Positions 2,123-19,189 are shown, counted from the first letter of the stretch. The stretch: DNA of 32,000 bases from Desulfobulbus propionicus DSM 2032 (GCF_000186885.1 NC_014972.1:3690001-3722000); one strand, 5' to 3'. The notes: a model not told the origin generated them from the letters alone. Translations and numbers: made by a program.

Positions 2123-4063
2123 ATGGGCAATCAGCCGGCGTTCAGGATTTCCATGCCCGCATCTCATCCACTGTTTTCTTCCCGCGTCCTGTTGCTGGGA
2201 TGCATGCTTCTCGTGTCGTCTATCGGTTTGGTCGCCTCGACCTCTGCCGAGGAAATCGTCCAACCCGCACGCCCCTCGCACCTGGAAGGAGCGGAAATTC
2301 AATCCACACAGACAAACCAGGACAATGGCCAACCGGTCAGCGACAACGTCTCGCCGGCCGCGACCTTTGACGGCGATCCTGTCCAGGTGTTGATCCAGCA
2401 GCACCTCGAACAGATGTATTACGACAAGCAGGATTCGATTGCCCAGGAACCGATCTATACCACCGGCTACCTGTTTGACCTGTACCGCAGAAACCAGTTT
2501 CGTCCCCTGTGGTCCAATCAGGACAACATCCACCAGCTGCTGACCGCGATCGCCGCCGCCGACGATGAGGGGCTGACTCCTGATGATTACCACCTCAAGG
2601 TGCTCAACCGCTACGCCAGTGAGCTCAACTCGGCACCTTCCCTGGCCAAGCAAGTGGAATACGACCTCCTGTTTTCGGATGCGTTTGTGCTCCTGGGACA
2701 GCATAAACGCTACGGCAAGGTCGACCCCAACAAAGTCGAGGAAAAACAGAACCTGGAAGCCACCACACCACGCACCTCCCCCATTGATACCTATCTCACG
2801 GCGATCAGAACGGGCGCGATCCAAGCGACTCTGGACAAGCTTTCTCCCCATCACAAGGCCTACGTCAACCTCAAGGAAGCACTGATTCGCTACAAACAGA
2901 TCGCCAGCAAAGGCGGATGGCCGCAGGTACCCATGGGACCGAGTCTAAGGCCGGGAGCCCATGACGATCGCGTGCCGGCAATACGACGGCGGCTGGCGAT
3001 CACCGATCATTACCATGCGACCGGTGGCGGCAATGCGAAACAGTACGACAGTCACTTGGTGGCCGCGGTCAAGGCGTTTCAGGCCCGTCACCACTTGGAA
3101 CCCGATGGCGTGGTCGGCAAGAGCACGGTCATGGCAATGAACGTCACGGTGGCGGAACGCATCAAGCAGCTCCGGGTCAATCTAGAGCGGACCCGCTGGG
3201 TGATCCACGATATGCCCAGCTCCAACCTCATCGTCGACATTGCCGGATTCATGCTTCAATATTATCATGACAATGCCCCGGTATGGACCAGTAAGGTGAT
3301 GGTCGGCCAGCCCTTTCATCAGACACCGATTTTCCGTTCGGCCATTACCTACATCGTTCTCAACCCCACTTGGACCATTACCCCGGACATTGTCAAGAAC
3401 GAGACCGTTCCCAGCATCATCAAGGACCCCGGTTATCTAGCCAAGCAACGACTACGGGTTCTCGACAGAAACGGCAATGCGGTTGATCCGAACACCATCC
3501 CGTGGACGCAGTACCAAGGCCGATATTTCCCTTATACCCTGCGTCAAGATGCGGGGCGGGACAATTCGCTTGGCCTGATCAAATTTCTCTTTCCCAACCC
3601 CTATCATGTCTACTTGCATGACACGCCGAGCAAGTCCCTTTTCGGTCGGACGCGACGCGCTTTCAGCCACGGTTGTATCCGAGTACAAAACCCCCTTGAA
3701 CTGGGCCGCATGATCCTGGCGAATGATCCTGGCAATCCAACCACACCCGCCAAGATGGACCAAATCCTTGCTTCAGGGAAGACCACGACAGTGATTCTCA
3801 AGCAACCGCTGCCCATTTATCTCATGTATCTGACCGCAAATGTCCAAGACAACAAAGTCATGTTCAAGCCCGATCTCTACAGCCGTGACGAAGGCATTCT
3901 TACCGCATTGAATACCCCCCCTTCATCGCTGGAACTGGCCCCTCAAGTTCCTGAAGCCAAAGGACAGCTCACCAATCAGCAAGTCAGGATCGACAAAACC
4001 GTGCGATACGTGCAAACAGAACAACAAAAATCGACGGAACCCTATGCAAAAGATACCCTGTGA
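2123..4063 (+). CDS. murein L,D-transpeptidase (YcbB/LdtD-like)
   Basis: 646 aa. It has a signal-like N-terminus (LLLGCMLLVSSIGLVASTSA). It has a peptidoglycan-binding repeat (VAAVKAFQARHHLEPDGVVGKSTVMAMN). It has the YkuD catalytic motif (HDTPSKSLFGRTRRAFSHGCIRVQNP). An alternative start at M11 (2153) is possible. Confidence 0.9.
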   Translation: MGNQPAFRISMPASHPLFSSRVLLLGCMLLVSSIGLVASTSAEEIVQPARPSHLEGAEIQSTQTNQDNGQPVSDNVSPAATFDGDPVQVLIQQHLEQMYYDKQDSIAQEPIYTTGYLFDLYRRNQFRPLWSNQDNIHQLLTAIAAADDEGLTPDDYHLKVLNRYASELNSAPSLAKQVEYDLLFSDAFVLLGQHKRYGKVDPNKVEEKQNLEATTPRTSPIDTYLTAIRTGAIQATLDKLSPHHKAYVNLKEALIRYKQIASKGGWPQVPMGPSLRPGAHDDRVPAIRRRLAITDHYHATGGGNAKQYDSHLVAAVKAFQARHHLEPDGVVGKSTVMAMNVTVAERIKQLRVNLERTRWVIHDMPSSNLIVDIAGFMLQYYHDNAPVWTSKVMVGQPFHQTPIFRSAITYIVLNPTWTITPDIVKNETVPSIIKDPGYLAKQRLRVLDRNGNAVDPNTIPWTQYQGRYFPYTLRQDAGRDNSLGLIKFLFPNPYHVYLHDTPSKSLFGRTRRAFSHGCIRVQNPLELGRMILANDPGNPTTPAKMDQILASGKTTTVILKQPLPIYLMYLTANVQDNKVMFKPDLYSRDEGILTALNTPPSSLELAPQVPEAKGQLTNQQVRIDKTVRYVQTEQQKSTEPYAKDTL

Positions 4064-4271
4064 GCTGACTCTGGGTAATGGCGGTGATGTCATCGTCATG
4101 GTCGTATTGGATGAAGACGGCACCTTGCGCATACCTTGCTATGCCACCTATGGTACGTTTCAGGAAGGCGTGCTCAACTATCGTGTATTACGACCGGACG
4201 ATACCCAACGGGTGCGCAGGGAGGTTTGGGTGGATCAGGATGGCAAGGTGGTCACCGACAAACAAGGCTAG
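4044..4271 (+). CDS. hypothetical small protein (75 aa)
   Basis: Non-repetitive ORF (MQKIPCELTLGNGGDVIVMVVLDEDGTLRIPCYATYG...) that overlaps the transpeptidase 3' end by 20 nt. The RBS is weak and I recognise no family. Confidence 0.35.
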   Translation: MQKIPCELTLGNGGDVIVMVVLDEDGTLRIPCYATYGTFQEGVLNYRVLRPDDTQRVRREVWVDQDGKVVTDKQG

Positions 4272-4644
4272 TCGATTTCAACTGTAGGGCCACCGCCCCG
4301 CTGATCGATGCGCCATGGAGGGGCGGGACCGTGCATGTGGCCTGTGCATCTCCCTGGGCCCACGCTCCTTGGCCACGAAGGGACTGTGGATGACGCCCGC
4401 CCCTTGTTCCCAGCTGGGGCTGTTTGACACCTTCCTGTTTTCCGCAACATTCCCGTTCTCAAGTAGCCCTACTGCAACCGATTGTTACAGGTGTTCTTTT
4501 TTGTCGCCCGCAGGCGGGCACATCCACAGTGCCGCCCCGCCATTCGAGACACGATCATTCTCTTACCGGCATGATGAATAGCCTTCCCATGGATGCCAAT
4601 TCTTTCATCTCCCTTGACTTTATTCACACTGTAGAGTCTATGGT

Positions 4645-4805
4645 CTATTGTTCAGGTGTTCGTAGAAACGTAAAAGGGAACTCCGTGCAAATCGGAGACG
4701 GGCCCGCCGCTGTGACCGGGGACGACCGCTGCACCATGTCACTGACGACTATGTCGGGAAGACGCAGCCAATAGGAAGAACCGGGAGTCAGAAGACCTGC
4801 CTGGA
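4645..4805 (+). promoter_or_regulatory. cobalamin (B12) riboswitch
   Basis: The conserved cobalamin-riboswitch blocks appear in the right order. These are AAAAGGGAA (4672-4680), GTGCAAATC, CGGGCCCGCCGCTGTGA, the B12-box variant GTCACTG (about 4738-4744), GGGAAGAC, and a 3' AGTCAGAAGACCTGCC. The 5' CAGGT pairs with the 3' ACCTG (P1). A possible promoter has its -35 TTGACT at 4614-4619. The element lies upstream of cbiK. Confidence 0.85.
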
Positions 4806-4874
4806 CGGGAGGAGGAAACGACTGCGCGGACGGCGGCGTATCCGATTTGATCATTTCTGTGGATATAAAGGGCT

Positions 4875-4909
4875 ATCCCGGATCGAAATAGTCGATCCGG
4901 GATTTTTTT
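4875..4909 (+). terminator. intrinsic terminator (likely riboswitch expression platform)
   Basis: Perfect 12-bp stem ATCCCGGATCGA / TCGATCCGGGAT (4875-4886 and 4892-4903) followed by a T-run to 4909. It sits between the riboswitch core and the cbiK start. Confidence 0.8.
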
Positions 4910-5029
4910 ATTCCCCTTCCTGTGTCTCCTTTGGTGAAACGCAATCAACTATAGGCTGGCGGAGGAAGCGGTCATGGATGGCTCAGTCCCAGGTGGGCCG
5001 TCATAACCTTTTTTGCGGGAGAATATTGC

Positions 5030-5935
5030 ATGAACATTTTGGAGATCAAAACGCTGGTGTTGACGATAATTTGCTGCGCACTTATAGGAACCGTCTGTTT
5101 CTCAGGCGCTGTCGGTGCAGCCGGTCATGCCGCCGAGGAAAAGGGGCCGGCAATCCTCTTGGTCACCTTTGGGACCAGTGTTGAAAACGCCCAGACAGCC
5201 TTCCAAAACATCGAGCACCGCGTGAAAGAGGCCTTTCCCAAGACTGAAGTGCGCTGGGCGTATACCTCATCGATCATCCGCAACAAGCTTGCCAAGAAAG
5301 GAATCCGGATCGATTCACCGGAAATGGCCTTGTCCCGGCTAATGGACGAGGGCTATACGAAGGTCGCGGTGCAATCATTGCACATGATCCCAGGAGCCGA
5401 ATTCCATGAAATTAATGTCAATAGCCGCTTGTTCGCACAGATGGCTGGGGGGATCGATACAGTCATGGTCTCGCAACCGCTCTTGATCAGCGACGCGACC
5501 ATGGACAAGGTGTTGAACACCGTGCAAACAAATATCATACCCGAGGAACGCAAGGCGGAGGATGCCGTCATTCTTATGGGCCATGGCACGCATCACCCCA
5601 GCGACGCTATCTATGGCGCGCTGATGTACAAGGCACAAAAAAGGGATGCCAATCTTTACGTTGGCACCGTTGAAGGTGCACCTTCTTTTGCTGAGATCAA
5701 GGAGATGCTGCTCAAGAAAAAGACGCAAAAAGCCTACCTCATCCCCTTCATGACCGTGGCCGGCGATCACGCCATGAATGACATGGCCGGTGATGAGCCG
5801 GATTCATGGAAGAGTCAATTAACTAAGGCAGGCATCACTGCCGTGCCCGTGATGAAAGGGTTGGCGGAGTTCGACCCCATCGTCGATATGTGGATTGACC
5901 ATCTCAAGAATACCATGATTCATTTCCACAAATAA
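5030..5935 (+). CDS. cbiK: sirohydrochlorin cobaltochelatase CbiK family, with N-terminal signal-like segment
   Basis: 301 aa. CbiK hallmarks are ILLVTFGTS, VRWAYTSSIIRNKL, VQSLHMIPGAEFHE and MGHGTHHPSD. The N-terminus MNILEIKTLVLTIICCALIGTVCFSGAVGAAG looks like an export signal. An RBS GGGAGA lies upstream. Confidence 0.85.
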   Translation: MNILEIKTLVLTIICCALIGTVCFSGAVGAAGHAAEEKGPAILLVTFGTSVENAQTAFQNIEHRVKEAFPKTEVRWAYTSSIIRNKLAKKGIRIDSPEMALSRLMDEGYTKVAVQSLHMIPGAEFHEINVNSRLFAQMAGGIDTVMVSQPLLISDATMDKVLNTVQTNIIPEERKAEDAVILMGHGTHHPSDAIYGALMYKAQKRDANLYVGTVEGAPSFAEIKEMLLKKKTQKAYLIPFMTVAGDHAMNDMAGDEPDSWKSQLTKAGITAVPVMKGLAEFDPIVDMWIDHLKNTMIHFHK

Positions 5936-6054
5936 GACCGTAAACTAATTAGTGTACAATATATCCACGGTTCTACGATAAGCCTAGTCATTGCAATTGT
6001 TCTCAGCTCCCAGCTCGATGGTTCCGTGGGAGGGATAGACTCGTCGCCTCATCG

Positions 6055-6189
6055 ATAAAAAAACCCCTGTTTTATGAATAAAAAAACAGGGGAAAAATAA
6101 TCAACTTGATCTGCCAAGATCGCGATCTTGTGGCAGGTAAAAAGTGAACAACAAACCGTTCACGCCCATCCCAGGCACACAAACGCCTG
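6055..6189 (-). terminator. cluster of four hairpins ending the island operon (tandem intrinsic terminators)
   Basis: Read on the minus strand after the stop at 6196. The hairpins are CAGGC-N8-GCCTG (6172-6189), GTGAAC-N8-GTTCAC followed by TTTTT (6139-6163), the imperfect palindrome CTGCCA..TGGCAG (6111-6136), and CCCCTGTTTT-N8-AAAACAGGGG followed by a T-run (6055-6092). Confidence 0.65.
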
Positions 6190-6195
6190 TTACGA

Positions 6196-7128
6196 TCATT
6201 GACGTTTTTTTACATTCTTCTTCTCATCTGGCAATGGCACATTATAAACAATATAGGCAAAATCGTTCATTAGTGTGGTGATACCTTGCTCAATCGCTTT
6301 TTCAAAAAGAGCATCGTACTCATAATCAGCCCAAAATGAACGTGGGGATACTTTTACATCATTTCTATTACTCCAAACTATATTGCCATTATATGCGTCT
6401 TGAACCCACATACGAATTTGAACAACAGCTTGTGGAATAGCTCCTAATTCAATTCTATCTTTATCATCAAAATCAGAAGAATTTAAATCATCATACACCT
6501 CAGTCGTTGTTTGACCAATCCAAAATTGCTCATCAGTACCGAAGAAAAATGGGATAATGCCTTTTTTCCACGGTGCCCAAGATGGATCCAAACGATCTCT
6601 GTATTGAATAATTCTACCTCGAACAATATAATCAGCAGAAAAATGTCGTCCTATTTTAACAATTTCTTGGGGACTTAGCCCATGAACAAGAGAAGTATCT
6701 CCTTCTATATTTTTATTATTGTTTTGAGTATCTTTTATATATCTCTTCAATGTTCTTTTCATATTACTTGACCAATCATTGTCAAGTTCATACTCAATCG
6801 ATACTGTTTTGTTTCGATCATAGGAGGTGACATTTATTATATTTTGGTCAGCTAAAAACTTATAAATATCTTCTTGAACAGGAAGATGAAATCCTAACCT
6901 TACAAACTGATCAGCCACGTTTTCACTAACAAAAAGATTCCTACGATAGGCACTTTCCAGATTGTCCGCTTGCGAATAATCGGCGAAAGGCAGAATAACC
7001 ACTGTTTTGTCGGCTCCCACTATATTCTTTTTGAGTGGATCGACTTTCAACGATTCATGGACGGTCGCGCCGCAACCACCAAGGCAAAAGGCGAGGAGGC
7101 AAACGAGTAGATGGTGGCGAAATTTCAT
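6196..7128 (-). CDS. lipoprotein of unknown function (possible LpoB/CsgG/TolB-N-like fold)
   Basis: 310 aa. Lipobox LLAFCLGGC. The motif VVILPFADYS and later strands (ADYIVRGRIIQY, VVQIRMWVQDAYNGNIVWS) resemble the small alpha/beta lipoprotein fold of LpoB/CsgG-type proteins, but this is recognition only, not a search result. RBS AGGAGA. It is the last gene of the operon. Confidence 0.75.
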   Translation of the reverse strand: MKFRHHLLVCLLAFCLGGCGATVHESLKVDPLKKNIVGADKTVVILPFADYSQADNLESAYRRNLFVSENVADQFVRLGFHLPVQEDIYKFLADQNIINVTSYDRNKTVSIEYELDNDWSSNMKRTLKRYIKDTQNNNKNIEGDTSLVHGLSPQEIVKIGRHFSADYIVRGRIIQYRDRLDPSWAPWKKGIIPFFFGTDEQFWIGQTTTEVYDDLNSSDFDDKDRIELGAIPQAVVQIRMWVQDAYNGNIVWSNRNDVKVSPRSFWADYEYDALFEKAIEQGITTLMNDFAYIVYNVPLPDEKKNVKKRQ

Positions 7129-7158
7129 ACCATTTCTCCTGTTATTCTGGGGACAAAG

Positions 7159-8919
7159 TTAAATAATTCTCGGAGTGAGCAGGATAACCAACTCACGTTT
7201 CTGCAAGGTTTTCTCTTCCACGCCAAAAAGGTATTTCACCACGGGAATGCTGCCCAAGCCAGGTGCAAAAGCACCTGTCTTTCCTTCAATACTGTCGATG
7301 AGACCACCGATGATCAGCATTTCTCCGTTTTCGACCTCCACCATGGTCGACATTTCACGTACTTTGACCTGCGGCAGGCCGAGAGACATGGCGGTCTCTC
7401 CCTCACCAATGGTGGTGATCGGGACCTCACCATCACTGGTGGCATTGGCCAAATCGGTTGTAATGGGAGTCAGATGGAGAATAACTTTATTTTCGTCCAG
7501 AATAGAGGCCATCACGCCCAGGGCAATTCCCTGAACCACATTCCCCACTTCAGCAGAATAGGTTATATCTTCGGTGTCGCTATCCTTTTCTCTTGTGACC
7601 GATTTTATGTAAGCAACATCCTTACCGACACTAATAATCGCTGGTTGCCCATTGAGAACGGTCAATTTGGGATTGGCTAACACATGAGTATCTCCCTGTT
7701 CCTCTAGTGCATTGAGAAAAACATCGAATGTTAAACTTGGAATCTCAACACGACTGACAAAAGTATTCGAAAAATCATCAGGGTCAGCAGTTGTGCGTGG
7801 ATGCACTTGGCCATTGTTGCCAAAAAAAGTAGTTGCTGAAATTTGAAAATCTTTAAGAACACTACTCCAATCAAGTCCAATTTTAGAGTTATCTTGCAAA
7901 TAAACTTCTATAATTTTGGCTTCAATGTTAACTTGCTTATACAATGATTTCTTTAAATTATTGATATAATCATCGACAACCTTCAACAAGCTCGGTTTTG
8001 CTGTCACAGTTATAAGTCCTACATTCCGGTCGATAACAAAGGAAGCCTTATCCTTTGCCCCCATGCTCATTGTTTTTTCTTCTGATCCGACCGCATCTCC
8101 TTTTGCTGCTTTCTCTGGTTCACCTTGTTTTGCACTGAACTCTTCACTCTTAGCCGTATTCGGCCCCATATTTTTATCATTTTCTTTTGCTTTGGTTTCT
8201 GCTGAAGATGCCAGAAGAACAGATTGTCGATCAGCCTCAGCTGTTTTGAGGATAATTTTCAAATTCGATTCAACGCTATCCCAAACATTGAACTTGTTTT
8301 CAGGGCTCGATATTTTAACGGATCCTTCTGTGCCTGAAGCAGCATCCTTATTCGAGAGAAAATTTCCGCCTACAGTCGAAGTATAACCGCCCTTCATGGC
8401 GGGAATACCTATTTGATAAACCTTAGTCTCTTTATTACGAACAACGACATTTTTGCCATTCACTTCATGAAAATAGTCAGCTTGACGGAGAAGGTTGGCA
8501 ATCGCATCAAAAAAATTATCGTTGGCTGCGATATCGACATCGACAGGAATCGTTTGGTCAACATCGCTCGCCCAGCTAACGGTCATACCCTTTAAATTCA
8601 CCAATCGTTTCATTACCTCCCAAAGGGGTTGCGGGCCACCTGTGGAACGTATCGTCGCACCCACTTTGATCTGGTATTCTTCAGGCTCGTCACCTAACTC
8701 GTCAACAGTATTATCTGGAGATATTAGGTAACCTGGTGTCTGATATCGAACAGGAAGTTGAGCGGGCGTTGCTATGGGCTTGTTTTCGATGGTGGCGCTC
8801 GAAGATGGTGGAGCGCTCTTATCAACATTATCTTTGGCCTTCTTTTTGGCACCGCAAGAGACCAGGAATGGCAGTGCGATCACAAGACACAGGCAGGCAA
8901 CATATTTGCTCAATTTCAT
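7159..8919 (-). CDS. outer-membrane secretin, lipoprotein type (MshL-like)
   Basis: I start it at the ATG 8917-8919 (MKLSKYVACLCLVIALPFLVSCG, lipobox LVSC, RBS GAGGA upstream). It has an N0-like domain (PLWEVMKRLVNLKGMTVSWASDVD..FFDAIANLL). It has a secretin core (QVNIEAKIIEVYLQDNSKIGLDW, HVLANPKLTVLNGQPAII, GIPVVKYLFGVEEKTLQKRELVILLTPRII). Confidence 0.9.
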   Translation of the reverse strand: MKLSKYVACLCLVIALPFLVSCGAKKKAKDNVDKSAPPSSSATIENKPIATPAQLPVRYQTPGYLISPDNTVDELGDEPEEYQIKVGATIRSTGGPQPLWEVMKRLVNLKGMTVSWASDVDQTIPVDVDIAANDNFFDAIANLLRQADYFHEVNGKNVVVRNKETKVYQIGIPAMKGGYTSTVGGNFLSNKDAASGTEGSVKISSPENKFNVWDSVESNLKIILKTAEADRQSVLLASSAETKAKENDKNMGPNTAKSEEFSAKQGEPEKAAKGDAVGSEEKTMSMGAKDKASFVIDRNVGLITVTAKPSLLKVVDDYINNLKKSLYKQVNIEAKIIEVYLQDNSKIGLDWSSVLKDFQISATTFFGNNGQVHPRTTADPDDFSNTFVSRVEIPSLTFDVFLNALEEQGDTHVLANPKLTVLNGQPAIISVGKDVAYIKSVTREKDSDTEDITYSAEVGNVVQGIALGVMASILDENKVILHLTPITTDLANATSDGEVPITTIGEGETAMSLGLPQVKVREMSTMVEVENGEMLIIGGLIDSIEGKTGAFAPGLGSIPVVKYLFGVEEKTLQKRELVILLTPRII

Positions 8920-8961
8920 AAAATGATCCTCAATATGATCCAAGACACGAAATACAAACCA

Positions 8962-10836
8962 TTATAGGGTGGGATGAACAGCAACCCGTCCTTTGATGAA
9001 TTTTTCCAAGTCAGGGGGAATCTGAAATCCTGATGACAAAATAGCGCGATATTGGGCAGTGGCCTGCTTTTCTTCGCCTAATTTATCGTGAATTCGGGCA
9101 GTCGCGACCATGGAATCGAGATTTTTTCCGTAGAGGCTATCATGACGGTTAAGAGCGGCGAGAGCAGAACGCAAATCTCTGTGATGTTCACTGAAGGCCG
9201 CATAATTCAAAAGAGATTCCTTTAGCGGCTTTGGCCCGCTGGTACTTTGTTTAAAATAAGACTCTGCCTGTCGAGTATCTTGCATGTTGGCAGAGGCAAT
9301 GGCCGCGTTGAGCAGGGCGGATTCATTGCGTGGGTCAGCCTCGATGGCGCGTTTGGCAAAGTATAAAGATTTCGCATTTTGCTGAAGCTGGACGAGATAG
9401 ATGGAGGCGATCTTATTGGCAAGTTTTGAGTTTTTCGGCCATTTTTCCAGTGCCTGCTCATACAGGCCTGCTGCCGTTTCAAAATTTTCCTGCCTTTCTG
9501 CCCCACGGCCTTTGGTAATCAGTTCTTTGGCCTCGATAATTTCAGCAGACTGTTTTTCTTGCTGCTGAACGATAAGTGTATCTCGCTCCATTACCGCTGA
9601 ATCAGCCTCAAAACTTAAGTTATTTTGAGCCTGTTCGGGCCATTTAAACCCCTTTCCTTTGGGATAAATGACTAATGTGTTAAATCGCTCCTCTTTTTCT
9701 AGATCTTTCAAATTGAGAATGATATCGAGAGCGAAATCCCAAGGGACATCATCCAGCACCAAGGTGAGAGCCCCCTCCACCGATTCATCGACAACGATAT
9801 TGACCCCACTTACCTGCCGTAGAAAGTTGAAAACGTTATGTAAATCCATTTTCTGAAATTCAACGGTGATCCGTTCCTTATTATAGCCGGAGAAATTGAA
9901 TGCATCCTGCATTTGCTGTTCTTTGGCTTTTGGTGAAGGTTTTGCATCCAACGGATTAATTGAAGGGAGCTGCGTGTCGATAGTTTTTTGTTGATTAATG
10001 ATCGAAGTAACTTGATCCTTTGACCTTGCCTCATCAACAATGATTTCTAAACCATTTGATATGGCATTAATGCTATATGGAAACAATGCGTCAGAGGATG
10101 AATGGAAACTAAAACGTAAGCCCGTGTCACGACGGGCAATCTGAATTTTTGACAGTGCTGTATCAACTTTGCGATCGGTTAAGGCAGCATCATCACTTGT
10201 GGCGTTATCAATGTCTATGATAAGCTGCGGGGGAATATTTCCGGATTTATCAACGGTACTTTTATTGTATTTCGATACAGTTTCATCGAAAAGCAGCTGT
10301 ATTTTTGTTCTTTTATTTTCTTTGGTTATGGAAACATCGGAAAATTTCGCCTGCTTGGTTCCGGATGAAACATTGACAGGTTGTTGTTGATTAACTGATG
10401 TTTCGCCGTTCTTGGATACGGAATTATTTCCGGCCAACAACAAAACAATTTCATTTTCATTCTGTTTCGTATTAAACGAAATTGCCTCTGGGAGAGTGAA
10501 TTCGAATCGTGATATTGAAGACTTCGCTCCTGGAACTTCACTTGTGGCCAATTTTATATTTTCATTTTCAATCGATTGAACAAAATCTTTCGCTATTTTA
10601 GCATCTGCGATATCAACTACGATCCTTGGAGGATTAGGCAATTCGTATACCGTCGAAACTAAAGAAGCTGTTCCTTTTATTCTTATTTCTTCCTGTTGAT
10701 TTATTTTTTTCAATGTTACCGAACTAATTTGAATTTCAGGTGTTTCGGCGTTAGAACTTGTGTGAAAAATAAAGAAAAACGTGAATAATAGCAGGATGGA
10801 ATATTTCGATCGCGCAAAAGAATGAAACATGATCAT
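8962..10836 (-). CDS. PilQ-N-terminal-like protein: signal peptide + 2 AMIN domains + N0 domain + C-terminal TPR domain, no secretin pore
   Basis: 624 aa. AMIN-like units span aa about 36-135 (..NPPRIVVDIADAKI..) and about 165-268 (..PPQLIIDIDNATSD..). The N0 domain spans aa about 320-393 (ITVEFQKMDLHNVFNFLRQVSGVNIVVDESVEGALTLVLDDVPWDFALDIIL). TPR-like repeats span aa about 440-600. There is no secretin-domain motif. It overlaps pilP by ATGA. Confidence 0.85.
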   Translation of the reverse strand: MIMFHSFARSKYSILLLFTFFFIFHTSSNAETPEIQISSVTLKKINQQEEIRIKGTASLVSTVYELPNPPRIVVDIADAKIAKDFVQSIENENIKLATSEVPGAKSSISRFEFTLPEAISFNTKQNENEIVLLLAGNNSVSKNGETSVNQQQPVNVSSGTKQAKFSDVSITKENKRTKIQLLFDETVSKYNKSTVDKSGNIPPQLIIDIDNATSDDAALTDRKVDTALSKIQIARRDTGLRFSFHSSSDALFPYSINAISNGLEIIVDEARSKDQVTSIINQQKTIDTQLPSINPLDAKPSPKAKEQQMQDAFNFSGYNKERITVEFQKMDLHNVFNFLRQVSGVNIVVDESVEGALTLVLDDVPWDFALDIILNLKDLEKEERFNTLVIYPKGKGFKWPEQAQNNLSFEADSAVMERDTLIVQQQEKQSAEIIEAKELITKGRGAERQENFETAAGLYEQALEKWPKNSKLANKIASIYLVQLQQNAKSLYFAKRAIEADPRNESALLNAAIASANMQDTRQAESYFKQSTSGPKPLKESLLNYAAFSEHHRDLRSALAALNRHDSLYGKNLDSMVATARIHDKLGEEKQATAQYRAILSSGFQIPPDLEKFIKGRVAVHPTL

Positions 10837-11384
10837 TTCTCTCCTTCTTTGTTCAGGCTCATGGTAATAATCGTTTTCATTTCTTTACCCGATCTCGTCA
10901 AAGCGGTTTCCGTAATAAATACTTGATCAGGTGTAATTTTTGTAACAATGCCTCTTTTGCCAATAGGCGTCCCTACTTTCAACAAATATCCTTTATTAGC
11001 TTGATCTTCAACCATCGCTAGTTCGTCAGTTGAACTTATCAAAACACCAACCAATTTGAGCTGTCCTGGTTCAAACAACTGCATTCCTATTAATTCATCT
11101 GTGCTTTCTATGATTTCATTGGGGTCGAATCCAGCAGGGACATCAGCCTTTTCAGAAAGAAACGGTTTGAATGGATCCATCCTCCCCTCAACTTTATAGG
11201 TGTAACTGTTATCCTTTGTACTTAAAAAATTATTAGTCGGATTATCCTCTCCAAAACAGTTGGGTAAAATCCCAAACAAAAATAAAGCATATCCAATTAG
11301 GCAAACCGCAAAGCGCCTAGGATTTTCTTTTTTTTCTATCATTGTGCGGTCATCTCTTATTGTCTTGGATAAAATACTCATCAC
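10833..11384 (-). CDS. pilP: type IV pilus assembly protein PilP-like
   Basis: 183 aa. It has an N-terminal hydrophobic anchor, then GRMDPFKPF and LKLVGVLISS..LLKVGTPIGKRGIVTKITPDQVFITE, which is the PilP pattern. It follows pilO. The start could instead be the internal MIEKK. Confidence 0.7.
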   Translation of the reverse strand: MMSILSKTIRDDRTMIEKKENPRRFAVCLIGYALFLFGILPNCFGEDNPTNNFLSTKDNSYTYKVEGRMDPFKPFLSEKADVPAGFDPNEIIESTDELIGMQLFEPGQLKLVGVLISSTDELAMVEDQANKGYLLKVGTPIGKRGIVTKITPDQVFITETALTRSGKEMKTIITMSLNKEGEK

Positions 11385-11411
11385 ATACAGTACACAAAGG
11401 CTAAAATAGAC

Positions 11412-12053
11412 CTATTTCTTGCCCTTCTTTCCTTTCTGCTCTGGCGGAGGAGCAGGTACATTAGTAAATCGATACGTAACCAATCGGCAGGAGGAAGAAA
11501 GCAACATCTCGCCTTCAACTTGTTCGGCCTTCTCTGTCTTTATATTGTTAACAGTTACTATTCGCTCAAGCTTACTAACTTTATCTAAAAATAATCCCAA
11601 ATTATGATAAGGTCCCTTGATCTTTATATCGATTGGAATTTCAGCATAGAAATCTTTTTGCATTTCCGCTCCAGGTACGAACGATATAAAATCTAGGCCT
11701 GAATTTTTCCCAAGATCGGATATGTTTCGCAACAAATTGGGTATTTCTTGGCTTTTCGGGAGAAGAACAGAAGTGAGTTCAAATTCGTTTTGCGCATCTT
11801 CAAGTTCCTTTTGATGTTTTGGTAAATCGCGAGCCGCTCTTCGGACCTTGTTCAGCTCGTCAGTAGACACTTGAATTTGCTTTTTCAAATTCTCTATATT
11901 TTTTAAATTTTGCTGTAGAAATCCAAAATAAAACAATGAAACAGGTAAAATAAAAGCTAATACCAATATTAATATTTTATACCTTTTATCAAAAGGTATA
12001 AATTTTTCATCAACGAAAATGTCATATTTATTTTTCTTGGATGTCAAACCCAT
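11412..12053 (-). CDS. pilO: type IV pilus assembly protein PilO
   Basis: 213 aa. Single TM helix, coiled coil, then a PilO core (LLPKSQEIPNLLRNISDLGKNSGLDFISFVPG..FYAEIPIDIKIKGPYHNLGLFLDKVSKLERIV). Confidence 0.75.
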   Translation of the reverse strand: MGLTSKKNKYDIFVDEKFIPFDKRYKILILVLAFILPVSLFYFGFLQQNLKNIENLKKQIQVSTDELNKVRRAARDLPKHQKELEDAQNEFELTSVLLPKSQEIPNLLRNISDLGKNSGLDFISFVPGAEMQKDFYAEIPIDIKIKGPYHNLGLFLDKVSKLERIVTVNNIKTEKAEQVEGEMLLSSSCRLVTYRFTNVPAPPPEQKGKKGKK

Positions 12054-12067
12054 TTTTTGGCCTAGTA

Positions 12068-12643
12068 TTAATTTGATATTCTTTGAGCAGTATCGTTATT
12101 CTCGAATCCAACAGTGCAGGAAGTCGAGAAGGCCTTCAAATCTCTATCCGCAAATTTTTCCATTGAAGAACTTACCAATGTTACATTTTTGATATATTTA
12201 GAATTTTCTAGATCATCCATAAATTTCGCGATAGTTTGATCATCAAGTGCCATACCAGTTAAACTGAGTTGAGCCGAATCTTGAGTAATGCCTTTAAGCC
12301 ACATCCGACGAAATGGGATCAGATTTGCAATTTCATCAAGGACGTGAACAGTAAGAGAGGAAGATTGTTTTAACTGTTTTATAACTTCAATACGTGTTGC
12401 AAGAACTTTTTTCTCTTCATCGATTTTCTTGATTTCTGCTAAGATTTTATCATATTGTTTTTTTTCAGATTGCAGAGCGGCATTGGTATCGCGCATTTTC
12501 TTAACAATGTTAGACTGGTAATATCCAAATGCAATAAGCACGATCACCAAAGCACCAAAAAATATTATCGATAAATTAATCTGTTGCTTAGCTTTGTTGC
12601 GCTTAATTATTTCCCGGACCGGGAGTAAATTGATATGAATCAT
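12068..12643 (-). CDS. pilN: type IV pilus assembly protein PilN
   Basis: 191 aa. It has the diagnostic N-terminus MIHINLLPVRE, followed by one TM helix and a coiled coil. Confidence 0.8.
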   Translation of the reverse strand: MIHINLLPVREIIKRNKAKQQINLSIIFFGALVIVLIAFGYYQSNIVKKMRDTNAALQSEKKQYDKILAEIKKIDEEKKVLATRIEVIKQLKQSSSLTVHVLDEIANLIPFRRMWLKGITQDSAQLSLTGMALDDQTIAKFMDDLENSKYIKNVTLVSSSMEKFADRDLKAFSTSCTVGFENNDTAQRISN

Positions 12644-12651
12644 AATTTTTT

Positions 12652-13698
12652 TTAAAAAGATGCAGAGCGAATTGCCAATCCAGCGGCGATGGCCATTTCA
12701 GGGGCTATGGAATCAAGGTAGTTTTCATCAAATTTCTTTGGATCATAGACCATTTTTTTAAAAGGATTAAAAGCGATTACACTCAACCCTGTTTCCTTTT
12801 CTATATATTCTTTGAGTCCATTCACTTTCGACCCTCCGCCACTCAATACCAAATACTTTAAATGTTTATCTGGATTATTCATAAGATACAAGTCAATGGC
12901 TTTCTTGATCTCTAAAACCCATTGGGTGCAAGTCTGGTTGAAAATTTTTTCTATATCTTCACGAAAATTTTCTGCGGAAACGATACCAAGCTTTATCTTT
13001 TCCGCTTGGGCATAATCGATATCAAGAGTGTTCGCCAGTTGCATGGTTAATTGTTCACTACCGACAACAATATCCCTAGCCAATACTGAAACACCTTCAG
13101 ATATGATATTTATATTCATTTTTGAAGCACCGATATCGACAAGTGCAACGTTTTCCATTGGTTCCGAAATAGTTTCCCAAATATTTTCAAGAGCAAACCC
13201 ATCAACATCAACGAGCACGGTCTTCAATTTTATCTCATTGAGCATATCTAAGTAATCATTCACAACCTCTTTTTTCGCCGCAACAAGCATTATGTCGTTT
13301 CGGTCACTATGCTCTTTCTTTGATGGTAATTTTTGAAAATCGAGATAGACATCATTTAAATCAAACGGAATATACTGTTCGGCTTCAGCTTTTATATATT
13401 CCGCTAAGGAATCGTCATCCATCGCCTCTAAATTGATTTTCTTAACAATAACGGAATATCCGGAAATCGAGATACCGATTTTGGTATTTTTTATTCTCAA
13501 ATTTTTGAGAAGGGCAGAAATTGTGCGCCCAACTTCTTCCGGTTCTTGAAGAACGCCATCTTCCACCGCACCTGGTGAAATGGCGGCACTGCCAACGGCC
13601 AATAATTTATAAGTCCGCCCGGATTTCTGGAGTTGGCAAATCTTAACGGCATGGGAACCGATGTCGACTCCGGTGATCAGTTTTTCATTTTTTGCCAT
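12652..13698 (-). CDS. pilM: type IV pilus assembly ATPase-fold protein PilM
   Basis: 348 aa actin-like fold. Motifs are ITGVDIGSHAVKICQL, VALVDIGASKMNINI and LVLSGGGSKVNGLKEYIEKETG. It is the first gene of the operon. Confidence 0.9.
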   Translation of the reverse strand: MAKNEKLITGVDIGSHAVKICQLQKSGRTYKLLAVGSAAISPGAVEDGVLQEPEEVGRTISALLKNLRIKNTKIGISISGYSVIVKKINLEAMDDDSLAEYIKAEAEQYIPFDLNDVYLDFQKLPSKKEHSDRNDIMLVAAKKEVVNDYLDMLNEIKLKTVLVDVDGFALENIWETISEPMENVALVDIGASKMNINIISEGVSVLARDIVVGSEQLTMQLANTLDIDYAQAEKIKLGIVSAENFREDIEKIFNQTCTQWVLEIKKAIDLYLMNNPDKHLKYLVLSGGGSKVNGLKEYIEKETGLSVIAFNPFKKMVYDPKKFDENYLDSIAPEMAIAAGLAIRSASF

Positions 13699-13774
13699 TT
13701 TCTTTTTTCTCTCGTTTAAGTATGGCAGACAAGGTTACCCACAGATATTAAATGCTTTTTTTACTCTGTTTTGT

Positions 13775-13804
13775 ATTAAGCACATAAAATAGATGCTTTG
13801 TCAA
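13775..13804 (-). promoter_or_regulatory. candidate sigma70-type promoter for the pilM operon
   Basis: The minus strand reads TTGACA (13799-13804), 18 nt, then CTTAAT (13775-13780), about 75 nt upstream of pilM. This is a sequence match only. Confidence 0.25.
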
Positions 13805-14355
13805 GCAAGCTGGTATTTTTTTCGCCCAACCTTGATCGTGAAGCGCTATTTGCCCTACAATAGTTAACGTATTGTCATAACATAATTTTTTAAAAAAATT
13901 CACCCCATCTGCCATGCTTGTGAGCTTTACCCGCCTTCATATGTGTATCCCGAGGCAAGAAAAATCGCGCCAGACAGACGAAATGCGTATTACCTGATTA
14001 AAAGCAGCCCAAAATAAAATTGTCAAATGCTGGAGTAAAAATTACCATGCCGCGAACACTGAAACAAAAAATCGATCAATCAGGCAATTTTCTCCAGCAT
14101 CCCATAAAACCGTGCCAGCGCTTTTGCCTCAAAATTGCCCCTTCCCTTCCCACAAAAACCATGGACTGCATTTAAACAAAGTTGACGCCGTATCCTCTTT
14201 TGGTTCAACCTTTCAACGAAAGGTTAAATTGTTGCATTTTTTCACACTAAACGATACAATATGAATTGTTATTCCTTTTGCTGAATCTACACAATCAAAA
14301 TAATTTTCATAAAAAAATTTTATGAATAAAATATTAACAATAAAAATTGAATATT

Positions 14356-15213
14356 ATGTCTTCTTCAGCTATTTTGCTTATTCATTGTCCCGACAATAAA
14401 GGGATAGTTGCAACAGTCAGTGAATTTATCTTTAAAAATAACGGAAACATCACCTATCTCGATCAGCATGTTGATTCAACGCAAAAGACTTTTTTTATGC
14501 GCATTGAATGGGAGTTGGATGATTTTATCATACCCCCCAATAAAATAGGGGAATATTTCGATACACTTATAGCCAAAAAATACTCAATGAAGTGGCAATT
14601 GCATTTTTCCAATGAAGTGCCGCGGATGGCTCTTTTTGTATCAAAACTTCCACATTGCCTATACGACATTCTTTCTCGATGGAAATCGCAAGAGATAGAG
14701 GTTGATATACCTCTCGTTATAAGTAATCATTTGGAGCTCGAACCGATAGCTCGGCAGTTCGGCATTGATTTTTATCATTTTGCCATAAATACTGAAAACA
14801 AAAGGGAACAGGAACAGGCCCAACTGCAACTTTTAGCTGAACATGACATCGAGTTCATCGTCCTTGCCCGGTACATGCAAATTCTCTCCGAAGAATTCAT
14901 CAGTCATTATCGCAACAAGATAATCAACATTCACCATTCTTTTCTCCCCGCCTTTCCCGGAGCGAGACCTTATCATTCGGCCTTCGAACGTGGTGTGAAA
15001 GTCATCGGCGCGACGAGCCATTATGTGACCGCTGAGCTGGATGCCGGCCCGATCATCACCCAGGACATCATCCGCGTCAGTCACGCGGATTCCGTCGACG
15101 ATCTGATGCGGAAAGGTCGGGATCTCGAAAAAGTGATCCTCGCTCGCTCCATCTGGCACCATTTGAAGCGACAAATCCTGGTCTTTCAAAATCGCACGGT
15201 GGTTTTTACTTGA
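14356..15213 (+). CDS. purU: formyltetrahydrofolate deformylase
   Basis: An N-terminal ACT domain (AILLIHCPDNKGIVATVSEFI) is followed by a formyltransferase core (IINIHHSFLPAFPGARPYHSAFERGVKVIGATSHYVTAELDAGPII). The ORF track starts at TTG 14347; I prefer ATG 14356. No clear SD sequence. Confidence 0.9.
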   Translation: MSSSAILLIHCPDNKGIVATVSEFIFKNNGNITYLDQHVDSTQKTFFMRIEWELDDFIIPPNKIGEYFDTLIAKKYSMKWQLHFSNEVPRMALFVSKLPHCLYDILSRWKSQEIEVDIPLVISNHLELEPIARQFGIDFYHFAINTENKREQEQAQLQLLAEHDIEFIVLARYMQILSEEFISHYRNKIINIHHSFLPAFPGARPYHSAFERGVKVIGATSHYVTAELDAGPIITQDIIRVSHADSVDDLMRKGRDLEKVILARSIWHHLKRQILVFQNRTVVFT

Positions 15214-15532
15214 AATCGGAAAACAACGGCGGGTCTGGCTCAATCATCTGTGCGCCCGGGGGTGGAGCCGTCGTCTCGAATAAATGGAACTCCAAACTTC
15301 CTTCAAGAATCTGAAACGTGCCGATATAGTGTCCCGGATCGTCTGGCAAGGCCGTATTGGTCGTATAGATGCCAAGATACCGCTCTTTCACGGGCATATC
15401 CGGATCCACTAGCACCCACATCAAGGGGGCCGTGTCGCCCTTGGTCTGCACCGTCAAAATTTGTCCGCCATGCGGGATAGGGATCGACTGGAGTCGATTG
15501 GGTGTCAGTTCAAACTTCCAGATAGTTTTCAT
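15206..15532 (-). CDS. conserved hypothetical protein (small beta-rich family often seen in phage and prophage contexts)
   Basis: 108 aa, MKTIWKFELTPNRLQSIPIPHGGQILTVQTKGDTAPLMWVLVDP..YIGTFQILEGSLEFHLFE. I recognise the MKTIWK(F/Y)EL..G..iL.Vq....p.lW.lVDp pattern from uncharacterised DUF-type proteins. Its start overlaps the upstream ORF as ATGA. Confidence 0.55.
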   Translation of the reverse strand: MKTIWKFELTPNRLQSIPIPHGGQILTVQTKGDTAPLMWVLVDPDMPVKERYLGIYTTNTALPDDPGHYIGTFQILEGSLEFHLFETTAPPPGAQMIEPDPPLFSDFK

Positions 15533-15780
15533 GGGTTGACCTGTTCATTAACCTTTGGAAAAGGAACAATATACCACGGCTGCCAGCGCATCATGACAGC
15601 CATGCCCTTACGTGGGTCGTCTTTTACCGTTGTTGTCCCATTGATGCAATCACATCCCTTACCGGCCGAAGATCCACAGCCATTTTTCGAGATCATCCTT
15701 GCGGATTTTGGCAATTCTGTTATCTGTGCGGTTGTTTTTTCAATGACCGTGAACGGATGCCGGAGCATGTCCCTCTCCAC
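15529..15780 (-). CDS. hypothetical small protein
   Basis: 83 aa with no family recognised. It is translationally coupled to the downstream ORF. Its start lies only about 35 nt from the divergent transketolase start, so the true start may be internal (MLRHPF). Confidence 0.35.
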   Translation of the reverse strand: MERDMLRHPFTVIEKTTAQITELPKSARMISKNGCGSSAGKGCDCINGTTTVKDDPRKGMAVMMRWQPWYIVPFPKVNEQVNP

Positions 15781-15813
15781 CGTTCCTCGAACTTTTTCCC
15801 ATTAGGATATGTT

Positions 15814-17706
15814 ATGAATTTCCCGATTGATTTGTCCGCGTACACCCCTCTGCGCTTTTCCGTCGATCAGCAAGGGCTCGATCTGGAGCAGCGCACCACC
15901 TTGATCCGCAATATCAACTTGGTGCGCGACAGTATCGTCTTTTTTACCGCCTTGGCCAATACCAAAGGCCTGGGGGGACATACCGGCGGCGCCTACGATA
16001 TTGTTCCCGAACTGCTGATTGCCGACGGGTTCATCAAAGGCGGTGACTCCTGCTATCCGGTCTATTTCGACGAAGCCGGTCACCGGGTGGCTATTCAGTA
16101 CCTCATGGCAGTGCTTAACGGCTACCAGCCAGCCGAAGCGTTGCTCCATTACCGGGAATTCGGCAAGGGATTGTACGGCCATCCCGAGCGCAACGAGGCA
16201 GAGGGCGTCTTCTTCAGTTCCGGCCGCCTGGGCCACCTGTGGAGCCATGTCAACGGCGTGGCCGAGGCGAATCCGAGCCAGAAAATCTTCCTGTTCGGCA
16301 GCGACGGCTCCCAACAGGAGGGCGATGACGCCGAGGCGGCCCGTTATGCGGTCGCCAGAAAACTTAACATCAAATTGCTGCTCGACGACAACGACGTCAC
16401 CATCGCCGGCCATCCGACTTCTTACATGCACGGCTATGATCTGTTGCGAACCTTGAGCGGTCACGGACTCGCGGTCCAGAGTTGCCAAGGTGAGGACATC
16501 GACAGCCTCTTTGCCTCTATTCGCCAGGCCATCGCTCACGACGGCCCAGCGGCGGTGGTCATCAAGCGCAAGATGGCGGTCGGCGTGGCCGGCATCGAAG
16601 GGTTGCCCAAGGGGCACGACGTCATCCCTGTGCCCATGGCCATTGACTACCTCACCGCCAAAGGGCACACCGCCGCAGTGGCCATGCTCCAGCAAGTGCC
16701 GGCCAAGGCGACGAAGACCGAATATCGCGGCAGCTCGACGGAATCGGCTAAAAATCGGGACGAATTCGGCAGGATCATCAGCGACCTGATCAAGGGACTC
16801 GACAATCCCGCATCCAAGGTTCTGGTGGTCGATTCCGACCTGGAAGGCTCCTGCGGTCTGCACCATATCCGCAAGAATTGCCCGGAGGTTTATGTCCATG
16901 GCGGCATCATGGAGCGCAACAACTTCTCGGTGGCTGCCGGTTTCGGCTCCACCTCCGGCAAACAGGGCATCTTCGGTACCTTTGCCGCCTTCCAGGAGAT
17001 GGTGATTTCCGAGATCACCATGGCCCGGCTCAACCAGGCCAATGTACTGGCCCACTTTTCCCATTCCGGGGTGGACGACATGGCCGACAACACCTGCCAT
17101 TTCGGTATCAACAACTTCTTTGCCGACAATGGCCTGGCCGAACACGACCGAACCCGGCTCTATTTTCCTGCCGATGCCCTGCAACTCAAGGCCATCCTCA
17201 CCAAGGTGTTTCATGACCAAGGCTTGCGGTTCGTTTTCTCCACCCGATCCGGCACCCCTTTCATCCTGCGGGAAAACGGCGAGAAATTCTTCGGCGACGG
17301 CTACACTTTCTCCCCGGATCGCGACGAAGTCATCCGTGAAGGCCGAGACGGCTATATTGTCTCCTACGGCGAGATGCTCTACCGCTGTCTCCATGTGGTG
17401 GAACTACTCAAAGACGAGGGCATTCAGCTTGGCCTGATCAACAAACCTGTCCTCAACGTGATCGACGAGGCCATGCTTGCCAAGGTAGGCGCAAGCCCCA
17501 TGGCCCTGATCATCGAAACCCAAAACAGTAAGACCGGCTTGGGCATCCGCTACGGCAGCTGGTTGCTTGAACGTGGTTTCACACCAAAGTACGCATATAT
17601 GGGCACATGGAAAGATGGCGCAGGCGGTCTGTCCGAACAGATTCCCTATCAGGGGATGGGAACCGAGGCCATCCGCGACAAGGTGCTGCAGATGCTTCAG
17701 GGATAA
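15814..17706 (+). CDS. transketolase family (thiamine-diphosphate-dependent) protein
   Basis: I start it at ATG 15814 (MNFPIDLS..), with AGGA upstream. The TPP-binding signature is LFGSDGSQQEGDDAEAARYAVARKLNIKLLLDDNDVTIAG. The N-terminus is atypical (GGHTGGAYD) compared with canonical TktA. Confidence 0.85.
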   Translation: MNFPIDLSAYTPLRFSVDQQGLDLEQRTTLIRNINLVRDSIVFFTALANTKGLGGHTGGAYDIVPELLIADGFIKGGDSCYPVYFDEAGHRVAIQYLMAVLNGYQPAEALLHYREFGKGLYGHPERNEAEGVFFSSGRLGHLWSHVNGVAEANPSQKIFLFGSDGSQQEGDDAEAARYAVARKLNIKLLLDDNDVTIAGHPTSYMHGYDLLRTLSGHGLAVQSCQGEDIDSLFASIRQAIAHDGPAAVVIKRKMAVGVAGIEGLPKGHDVIPVPMAIDYLTAKGHTAAVAMLQQVPAKATKTEYRGSSTESAKNRDEFGRIISDLIKGLDNPASKVLVVDSDLEGSCGLHHIRKNCPEVYVHGGIMERNNFSVAAGFGSTSGKQGIFGTFAAFQEMVISEITMARLNQANVLAHFSHSGVDDMADNTCHFGINNFFADNGLAEHDRTRLYFPADALQLKAILTKVFHDQGLRFVFSTRSGTPFILRENGEKFFGDGYTFSPDRDEVIREGRDGYIVSYGEMLYRCLHVVELLKDEGIQLGLINKPVLNVIDEAMLAKVGASPMALIIETQNSKTGLGIRYGSWLLERGFTPKYAYMGTWKDGAGGLSEQIPYQGMGTEAIRDKVLQMLQG

Positions 17707-17759
17707 CCCCCCGCAATCGTCTCGACAGCGGCGACTTTGCCGCTGTACACCAAAAAAAA

Positions 17760-18805: not shown

Positions 18806-18825
18806 AGATGAAATAACGGAGGTGG

Positions 18826-19119: not shown

Positions 19120-19189
19120 GATAAAGAGGCGGGGCCCGCCCCTCCGTTTCGAGGCCGGTTACGTGAAAGTCATCGTGCTGAAGATTCTC

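Follow-up and report, generated by a model that had tools for sequence, protein, structure and literature searches.

A probably native pilus operon of low GC content in the chromosome of Desulfobulbus propionicus

In the type IVa pilus systems of Pseudomonas aeruginosa, Myxococcus xanthus, and Neisseria meningitidis, the genes pilM, pilN, pilO, and pilP occur in a canonical order and are followed by the secretin gene pilQ (pilMNOPQ). In the msh (mannose-sensitive haemagglutinin, MSHA) loci, MshI/J/K lie upstream of the secretin MshL. Enterobacterial O-antigen (rfb) clusters and replacement islands have a guanine-plus-cytosine (GC) content below that of their genomes. The replacement islands of P. 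aeruginosa, according to PMC7685784, comprise the O-antigen, pyoverdine, flagellin glycosylation, and pilA loci. Here, we compare with these systems a locus in a 32,000-nucleotide stretch of the D. propionicus DSM 2032 chromosome (GCF_000186885.1 NC_014972.1:3690001-3722000; the whole stretch is referred to as the window hereafter). In this window, an AT-rich tract of about 9 kb, located between the genes cbiK and purU, holds one minus-strand operon, which is a single transcription unit of seven genes. We consider it probable (roughly 0.7) that the tract is a native, vertically inherited pilus operon, whose low GC content is a long-kept property of the locus across the D. propionicus clade. 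From its sequence, the operon is predicted to encode those components of a type IVa (MSHA-like) pilus machine that span the envelope. A literature search found no work specific to the pilMNOPQ genes of the Desulfobulbaceae; D. propionicus itself has been described as producing fimbriae (PMC3072085).

The components of the tract, in window coordinates and in the order of the operon, are as follows.

12652-13698, minus strand: pilM, the first gene of the operon (PF11104, E = 5e-73, 246 bits)
12068-12643, minus strand: pilN (PF05137, E = 1e-17, 64 bits)
11412-12053, minus strand: pilO (PF04350, E = 7.5e-42, 143 bits)
10833-11384, minus strand: pilP (PF04351, 31.5 bits against a cut-off of 25.6)
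8962-10836, minus strand: gene for a periplasmic AMIN/N0/TPR protein of 624 amino acids (Pfam matches to STN, N0, AMIN, and TPR)
7159-8919, minus strand: gene for the secretin, 586 amino acids from ATG, with the lipoprotein signal LVSC (PF00263, E = 4e-34)
6196-7128, minus strand: lipoprotein gene, the seventh of the operon, 310 amino acids, lipobox LGGC, unnamed family
13773-13804, minus strand: promoter-like motif TTGACA-N19-TTAATA(C), lying some 75-106 nt 5′ of the start of pilM
13699-14355, no strand assigned: divergent intergenic region between pilM and purU, GC 0.355
5936-6195, no strand assigned: convergent intergenic region with two hairpins 3′ of the last operon gene

The first four genes belong to the same PilM, PilN, PilO, and PilP families as those of the type IVa systems and are arranged in the canonical order, followed by a secretin gene; their four Pfam scores all exceed the gathering thresholds, and PilM also scores 254.6 against TIGR01175 (cut-off, 133). 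The start of pilP is uncertain, since gene callers (in L005 and L007; relatives and assemblies are denoted by such L numbers) give a protein of 169 amino acids corresponding to 10833-11342. The remaining genes depart from the known arrangement. In the type IVa systems, a single PilQ carries the AMIN and N0 modules, whereas here the modules homologous to the PilQ N terminus are located on a separate protein. This 624-amino-acid protein consists of one or more AMIN domains, a PilQ-type N0/STN domain, and a C-terminal PilW/PilF-like TPR region. It covers positions 2-110 of the PilQ model TIGR02515, also matches the PilW model TIGR02521, and matches the N0 regions of the M. xanthus, N. meningitidis, and P. 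aeruginosa PilQ proteins at E = 1e-11 to 3e-15. The secretin matches the same PilQ model only at positions 121-427 (99 bits; cut-off, 284). Because AMIN and N0 reside on the 624-amino-acid protein and the self-lipidated secretin is encoded apart from it, the canonical PilQ is split over two genes; judged from its domains, the 624-amino-acid protein supplies the N-terminal half that the secretin lacks relative to PilQ, joined to a pilotin-like module. This split arrangement was found to be conserved across the Desulfobulbia, cable bacteria included.

The secretin itself matches secretins in the PDB at E = 1e-11, and unlike PilQ, this pore subunit is a lipoprotein and conforms to the MshL model. 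Its score against the MshL equivalog TIGR02519 is 251.5, which passes the cut-off of 250.2 with a minimal margin, and NCBI and JGI name its homologs MshL. On this marginal pass, it is classified as an MshL-type secretin, like those of the Vibrio and Shewanella msh loci. Nevertheless, the locus differs from the msh loci in that separate pilM, pilN, pilO, and pilP genes lie upstream, and no mshM, mshN, mshE, or mshG was found in the window. With respect to the type IVa pilMNOPQ loci, two further differences are the conserved lipoprotein gene in the seventh position and a composition 20 GC points below that of the genome.

The preliminary description of this DNA had noted an AT-rich tract of about 9 kb that begins right after the cbiK stop codon and recovers only inside purU, and all of this was reproduced. 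For intervals of 1 kb, the GC content at about 5,936-14,900 has a mean of 0.394 and a maximum of 0.465. Outside the tract, in a set of 32 kb that includes 9 kb past the window edge taken from L171 (an independent assembly of the same organism), the mean is 0.613, the standard deviation 0.046, and the minimum 0.517; the two distributions have zero overlap. For intervals of 500 bp, the GC content is 0.34-0.49 over 6001-15000 and 0.49-0.68 elsewhere in the window. At a resolution of 200 bp, it drops directly after the cbiK stop codon (5935) and rises at about 14,900 within purU. The published GC content of D. propionicus DSM 2032 is 58.9% (PMC3072085). The AT-rich tract thus corresponds in extent to the transcription unit, the 650-bp upstream region, and the first 550 bp or so of the divergent purU.

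The effect is mostly found at synonymous sites. The GC content at third codon positions (GC3) is 0.28-0.41 for the seven genes of the tract (pilM 0.37, pilN 0.31, pilO 0.33, pilP 0.34, AMIN/TPR 0.39, secretin 0.41, and lipoprotein 0.28) and 0.63-0.79 for the flank genes, which are those for cbiK (0.66), a YkuD transpeptidase (0.67), DUF7352, transketolase (0.74), an amidohydrolase, and SbcCD (0.77-0.79). The proteins have also been reached by the AT pressure, since the fraction of Phe, Tyr, Met, Ile, Asn, and Lys (FYMINK) in PilM, PilN, and PilO of the window (0.352) is the top value among 72 orthologs. The dinucleotide signature distance (delta*) between the tract and its nearest flanks is 58-67, which falls inside the range of 37-91 found between flanks, and at such lengths this signature is uninformative. 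The sampled sequence comprised about 32 kb from this genome and, from relatives, about 110 kb of flanks; within it, comparable troughs adjoin the pil operon only. The "normal" chromosome is itself uneven: SbcCD, the cobalt-transport genes, and mnmA (window 20001-32000) have a GC content of 0.63-0.68, and the segments directly flanking the tract (1-5900 and 15000-20000) have one of 0.49-0.61.

The distribution of the operon is clear. A scan gave 474 confirmed matches in the Desulfobulbia, from which the best 80 loci were kept; the seven genes occur in the same order in all 80 of these best loci, and the operon is also present in both of the nearest metagenomic relatives (L173 and L175). The identity of PilM to that of the window decreases smoothly through the Desulfobulbia: 79-82% for the nearest Desulfobulbus, 72-76% for Desulfogranum, 62-64% for Electrothrix, and 59-64% for the Desulfocapsaceae. 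A neighbor-joining tree of PilM groups Electrothrix/Electronema, Desulfogranum, the Desulfocapsaceae, and Desulfobulbus as in the taxonomy. Close homologs of the Desulfobulbus pil proteins (P0018, P0208, and P0327) carry in public records the labels Candidatus Methanoperedens or Chlorobium metagenome-assembled genome (MAG), and these are probably mis-binned contigs.

Concerning the gene neighborhood, the adjacency of pilM and purU (followed by DUF7352 and transketolase) was also found in L016 and L032, which are two other Desulfobulbus species, so that the right-hand junction is ancestral to several species. Synteny in the group is generally poor. The comparison of the cbiK-to-purU order among relatives, which had been suggested earlier, gave a divided result: the purU side is common to L016 and L032, while the cbiK side is found in this species only. 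The promoter-like motif upstream of pilM could be aligned and is conserved in at least seven further species of Desulfobulbus or Desulfogranum (L011, L012, L013, L014, L015, L016, and L017), and it precedes both the AT-rich and the GC-normal versions of the operon. At the opposite end, the sequence shows a perfect hairpin (about 6060-6095) with a run of T residues after it on the minus strand, and a terminator scan found a second terminator-like hairpin at 6144-6163. The functions of the motif and the hairpins are predicted ones; the operon would run from the predicted promoter at about 13,800 to the predicted terminator at about 6,080. The intergenic region between pilM and purU contains no recognizable gene, its small open reading frames (ORFs) have no Pfam match, and no Rfam family was found there.

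In the pil genes, the proportion of synonymous differences (pS) between the window and every relative is 0.78-0.94, which is synonymous saturation; the low GC3 can therefore not be an unerased donor signature shared by descent. The nearest relative of the window PilM in a database of 5.8 billion proteins is 82% identical, and this value together with the above pS values means that no recent donor has been sampled.

The low GC content was found to recur at this locus in other species. Among the 49 species loci with enough flanking sequence, the operon has a lower GC content than its flanks in 46, with a mean gap of 5.2 points. Outside the D. propionicus clade, the relationship is described by the regression of operon GC = 0.107 + 0.71 x flank GC (r = 0.81). 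This regression predicts 0.53 for the operon of the window, and the observed value is 0.40, the residual being -0.133, or -5.3 standard deviations. Residuals of -0.06 to -0.10 were obtained for L012, L021, L022, and L024. The extra depression is seen in the clade to which the window belongs in the PilM tree (L012, L013, L021, L022, L024, L026, L016, and L019), where the operon GC is about 0.37-0.47 against flanks of 0.49-0.64, and also in the two closest metagenomic relatives, L173 and L175. Sharp troughs coincide with the operon at eight further loci from Desulfobulbus species (L012, L013, L021, L022, L024, L039, L173, and L175); they begin about 500 bp upstream of pilM and stop at the lipoprotein gene, despite differing neighbors. 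In six lineages, the operon GC is 0.40-0.42, while the flanks span 0.49-0.60. In the sister species L173, the proteins encoded in the flanks are 80-95% identical to those of the window and the flank GC3 is 0.70-0.89, and the GC content of its operon is 0.36-0.51. The distribution of the operon, the PilM tree, the shared motif, the purU adjacency, and the recurring trough together make the reading of the tract as an acquired island weak.

Several observations were made beside this pattern. L032 (10001-17166) is a mosaic, in which pilM, pilN, and pilO have a GC content of 0.38-0.46 and the AMIN/TPR, secretin, and lipoprotein genes have host-like values of 0.53-0.61. In L012 (17488-19019), the AT-rich tract runs on 3′ of the operon into a gene for a cNMP-binding/DUF4388 protein (GC 0.43), which may be a linked regulator sharing the low GC content. 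In L173 (3090-3746 and 9611-18597), the operon lies between a MatE gene and an amidohydrolase gene, the latter of which is located in the window on the far side of purU and transketolase, and an IS200-like Y1 transposase is found nearby; this neighbor order and the transposase indicate that the neighborhood has been rearranged.

The rate of change at silent sites was examined with the L022/L024 pair, which is 89% identical over 15 kb including shared flanks, so that the operon and the flanks are clearly co-inherited. The synonymous divergence (dS) is 0.27-0.66 for the operon genes and 0.14-0.21 for the flank genes, at equal nonsynonymous divergence (dN). The operon silent sites of this pair thus evolve about 2-3 times faster than those of the flanks. 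This observation suggests how a vertically inherited operon could have come to its composition. The operon would escape the force that keeps the genome at a GC3 of 0.65-0.9, which might be GC-biased gene conversion or genome-wide selection, and its synonymous sites would then move, at a rate about 2-3 times higher, toward an AT-biased equilibrium. In the long run, such drift would push the proteins toward A/T-rich codons (Phe, Tyr, Met, Ile, Asn, and Lys), and the effect would spill about 550 bp into the divergent purU. Exchange of DNA at the locus proceeds by homologous replacement of allelic segments, and not by integrases or transposases. Exemption from a GC-enriching force as the cause is what we infer from these data. 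As for the nature of that force, SbcCD is normally expressed at low levels, and its GC3 is nonetheless 0.77-0.79; expression-linked selection on codons is accordingly an unlikely candidate.

A number of results weigh against inheritance of an AT-rich native operon. The operons of the congeners L014, L015, and L018 and of the Desulfogranum locus L017 are GC-normal (GC3, 0.65-0.81), and AT-richness is therefore not obligatory for function. The operon proteins of the sister species L173 are no closer to those of the window (PilN 54%, lipoprotein 52%, and secretin 59%) than are the proteins of other congeners, the same proteins in L012, L016, and L175 being 59-74% identical, and the PilM distances are star-like (79-82%); these features hint at a reticulate history. 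The synonymous divergence between the window and L173 is saturated in the operon and 0.4-0.9 in the flanks, which can be explained by the 2-3-fold rate and also by an older coalescence. When the L022/L024 substitutions were polarized by L026, an excess of changes from A/T to G/C (W>S) over the reverse (S>W) was found (296:162), as slow amelioration predicts, although the outgroup is saturated and AT-rich and would alone yield a W>S ratio of about 1.5:1. The within-species single-nucleotide polymorphisms (13 W>S and 9 S>W) are too few to establish an equilibrium. Finally, the sampled sequence amounts to only the about 32 kb and 110 kb mentioned above.

Exchange at the locus was directly visible in the secretin gene. 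A tract of about 1.4 kb (window about 7450-8900), corresponding to the periplasmic N-terminal part of the secretin, is replaced in three of ten assemblies (L001, L005, and L008). The amino acid identity between the two alleles is 53% in the N-terminal part and 96% over the pore domain. The swapped tract ends at sharp breakpoints, and the genomic background is otherwise about 100% identical, as are pilM, pilN, pilO, and pilP among the strains. The alternative allele (L001 14780-16576) has a GC3 of 0.31. Its N-terminal part has no relative above 51% among the loci compared, and over its full length, the closest database match besides its own fragment is the window allele (73%); the database search for a donor gave nothing closer than this. 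The window allele is 68% identical to the secretin of L175, which is closer than to the alternative allele of the same species. The depth of the alleles thus exceeds the between-species distances. Such a sharp swap means that the exchange at this locus is homologous replacement, and not site-specific integration. The preliminary description had argued for old or recombination-mediated acquisition, and its two components can now be separated: recombination is supported, as allelic exchange in the secretin gene, while acquisition of the tract by this chromosome is not supported, in view of the distribution, the tree, the motif, the synteny, and the shared trough.

The locus can be set beside the P. 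aeruginosa replacement islands (PMC7685784). Like them, it encodes a surface structure at a fixed position in the strains without mobility genes (the junctions are identical in the ten assemblies). As for the highly divergent versions that are swapped by homologous recombination in such islands, the likeness extends to the N-terminal tract of the secretin only. Here, dimorphism is limited to about 1.4 kb of the operon's 7.5 kb, and the AT-richness reaches the conserved cytoplasmic and inner-membrane parts and is common across species, in place of being confined to strain-specific cassettes. With the classical tRNA-linked genomic or pathogenicity islands, the locus shares the abrupt shift in GC content and codon usage over about 9 kb, but it has no integrase, tRNA target, direct repeat, or patchiness and consists of a conserved core operon.

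The genes and signals at the two edges of the tract are as follows.

4637-4818, plus strand: cobalamin riboswitch in the left flank (RF00174, 117.7 bits against a gathering threshold of 31.5)
5030-5935, plus strand: cbiK, cobalt chelatase (PF06180, E = 5e-71), GC-normal; the tract begins at its stop codon
14356-15213, plus strand: purU, formyltetrahydrofolate deformylase, 285 amino acids from ATG (TIGR00655, 391 bits)

Relatives of cbiK in metagenomes (identity of 81% or less) never adjoin pil genes or purU. The riboswitch precedes cbiK; a separate cobalt-uptake cluster (cbiM-cbiQ-ABC ATPase, about 25.9-28.7 kb) gave no such match. At the right edge, the GC3 of purU is 0.40 for codons 1-184 and 0.61 for the remainder; it climbs gradually from about 0.3-0.45 in the first 150 codons or so to 0.5-0.7. 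Along its whole length, PurU keeps a uniform amino acid identity to its orthologs in L016 and L032. This uniformity and the gradient without a step give no positive sign of a recombination breakpoint, and regional spill-over of the AT bias into purU is no less likely.

No integrase, transposase, or phage domain was detected by Pfam in the tract or in the flanking ORFs, the small intergenic ones included, and the tract DNA has no similarity to any plasmid or phage record in the collections searched. The only tRNA gene in the window, that for tRNA-Arg (19911-19987), lies 5 kb away from the edge. The two edges have a single repeat in common, an exact 14-nt A/T word, TTTTATGAATAAAA, at 6070-6083 and 14318-14331. 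It was considered as an attachment (att)-like site and rejected: by our estimate, it is near the chance level for 9 kb of AT-rich DNA, and its left copy forms the loop of the terminator hairpin at about 6060-6095. Accordingly, the earlier statements that the edges lack an integrase, a transposase, a tRNA, and flanking direct repeats all hold, and so does the view that this is not a classical integrative element, the visible mobility at the locus being homologous recombination only. Taken together with the absence of patchiness, these negative results leave composition as the only feature that the tract shares with a classical integrative island. As for the integrity of the sequence, both junctions are present in at least 10 independent assemblies from different runs, samples, and sources (Logan, ENA, and one NCBI MAG) at 99.5-100% identity to the window, and the exact PilM protein is indexed in 76 data blocks.

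The seventh gene product was also characterized. The 310-amino-acid lipoprotein is conserved 3′ of the secretin across the Desulfobulbia, and its homologs are all named "hypothetical"; some are fused to a C-terminal OmpA domain (PF00691, peptidoglycan-binding). It has a weak Pfam match to LpoB. Its AlphaFold2 model is of moderate confidence, with a mean predicted local distance difference test (pLDDT) score of 61, and a Foldseek search with it matched FlgT, CsgG, PelC, and GNA1162. The modeled protein may thus resemble the ring-forming outer-membrane lipoproteins (PelC/CsgG/FlgT), which is to be taken as a lead and not as an assignment.

Four other explanations of the AT-rich tract were weighed against vertical inheritance. 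According to one of them, the pil operon was replaced through homologous recombination, at or before the base of the D. propionicus clade, by that of a lower-GC member of the Desulfobulbaceae, and the descendants ameliorated unequally, with D. propionicus being the least changed. The graded series of operon GC content within the genus (0.40 in the window, 0.41 in L012, 0.47 in L013, 0.50 in the mosaic L032, and 0.54 in L014; pilM of L015 reaches 0.59), the W>S excess in L022/L024, and the L032 mosaic, with low values in pilMNO and host-like ones in the remainder, can be understood in this way. Moreover, suitable donors exist, since many Desulfobulbaceae genomes have a GC content of 41-50%, and the swap of an allelic segment is demonstrably possible at the locus. 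On the other hand, the PilM proteins of the clade group with those of other Desulfobulbus and not with a low-GC lineage, and the promoter motif and the purU adjacency are common to GC-normal or partly ameliorated relatives. In addition, the operon GC stays at 0.40-0.42 in six lineages despite a full synonymous turnover, for which amelioration predicts the host value. We therefore regard such an ancient replacement as unlikely. Even if the operon had been acquired at or before the base of the Desulfobulbus clade, its low GC content would still have to be actively maintained and would not be a leftover donor signature.

If only D. propionicus had received the operon recently, by recombination with an AT-rich congener that has not been sampled and that has the pilM-purU arrangement, the crossovers would lie inside purU (about 14,900) and at the end of the lipoprotein gene. 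Such an import would fit the switch of GC3 inside purU, which the window alone shows (values in the L016 and L032 orthologs stay level at about 0.5-0.6), the cbiK junction unique to this species, and the fact that the sister species L173 is no closer in its operon proteins than are other congeners. As the alternative secretin allele shows, there are divergent donors that have escaped sampling, or ancient alleles. The uniform identity of PurU across the putative breakpoint and the gradual change of its GC3 speak against it, as does the lack of any protein above 82% identity in the 5.8 billion sequences. Furthermore, L173 and the loci of seven other species are equally AT-rich; the recipient allele was therefore already AT-rich, and the import would explain nothing. 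Consequently, this explanation appears quite improbable. A decayed genomic island or integrative element that has lost its integrase and att sites is more improbable by far, because the compositional deviation itself is its sole support: no integrase, transposase, or phage domain, edge tRNA, significant direct repeat, or plasmid or phage match was found, and the content is a single housekeeping-type operon, which is present in all relatives and is not patchy. Similarly, an assembly chimera, that is, a low-GC contig joined into a high-GC chromosome, had been listed earlier as an option. Nothing other than the abrupt change of composition favors it, and the 10 assemblies spanning both junctions, the 76 data blocks with the exact PilM, and the finished 3.85-Mb chromosome exclude it.

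Vertical inheritance of a native operon thus remains the explanation that we prefer. Within it, we tentatively put forward, as a possibility held with less than even confidence, a more specific proposal: the operon has held its own AT-biased equilibrium (GC3 about 0.3-0.45) in genomes with a GC3 of 0.7-0.9, clade-wide and through complete synonymous turnover, with its silent sites evolving 2-3 times faster. If this is true, it would represent a locus-specific escape from a genome-wide GC-enriching force. A possible cause would be suppressed homologous recombination, and hence the lack of GC-biased gene conversion, at a fast-diverging dimorphic envelope locus; another would be selection that favors AT-rich DNA because it serves as a target for regulation or silencing. 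The locus would then be a natural control, inside one genome, with which biased gene conversion could be told apart from selection in the evolution of bacterial GC content.

The gene content of the operon is ordinary, and the long-maintained, locus-specific base composition is moderately notable. A drop of 20 GC points without mobility genes is not evidence of horizontal acquisition, and a program that calls islands from composition would here mark an operon that is native and conserved. The locus also documents, in the Desulfobulbia including the cable bacteria, an architecture with a split PilQ, a lipoprotein secretin, and an accessory lipoprotein. The occurrence of the same operon in AT-depressed and GC-normal forms in neighboring species of one genus, with silent-site rates measurably unlike those of the flanks and a deep dimorphism in the secretin, provides a clean comparison for what maintains high GC content in bacteria, and the locus could test whether envelope machinery constrained by phages or partners acts as a recombination-isolated compartment.

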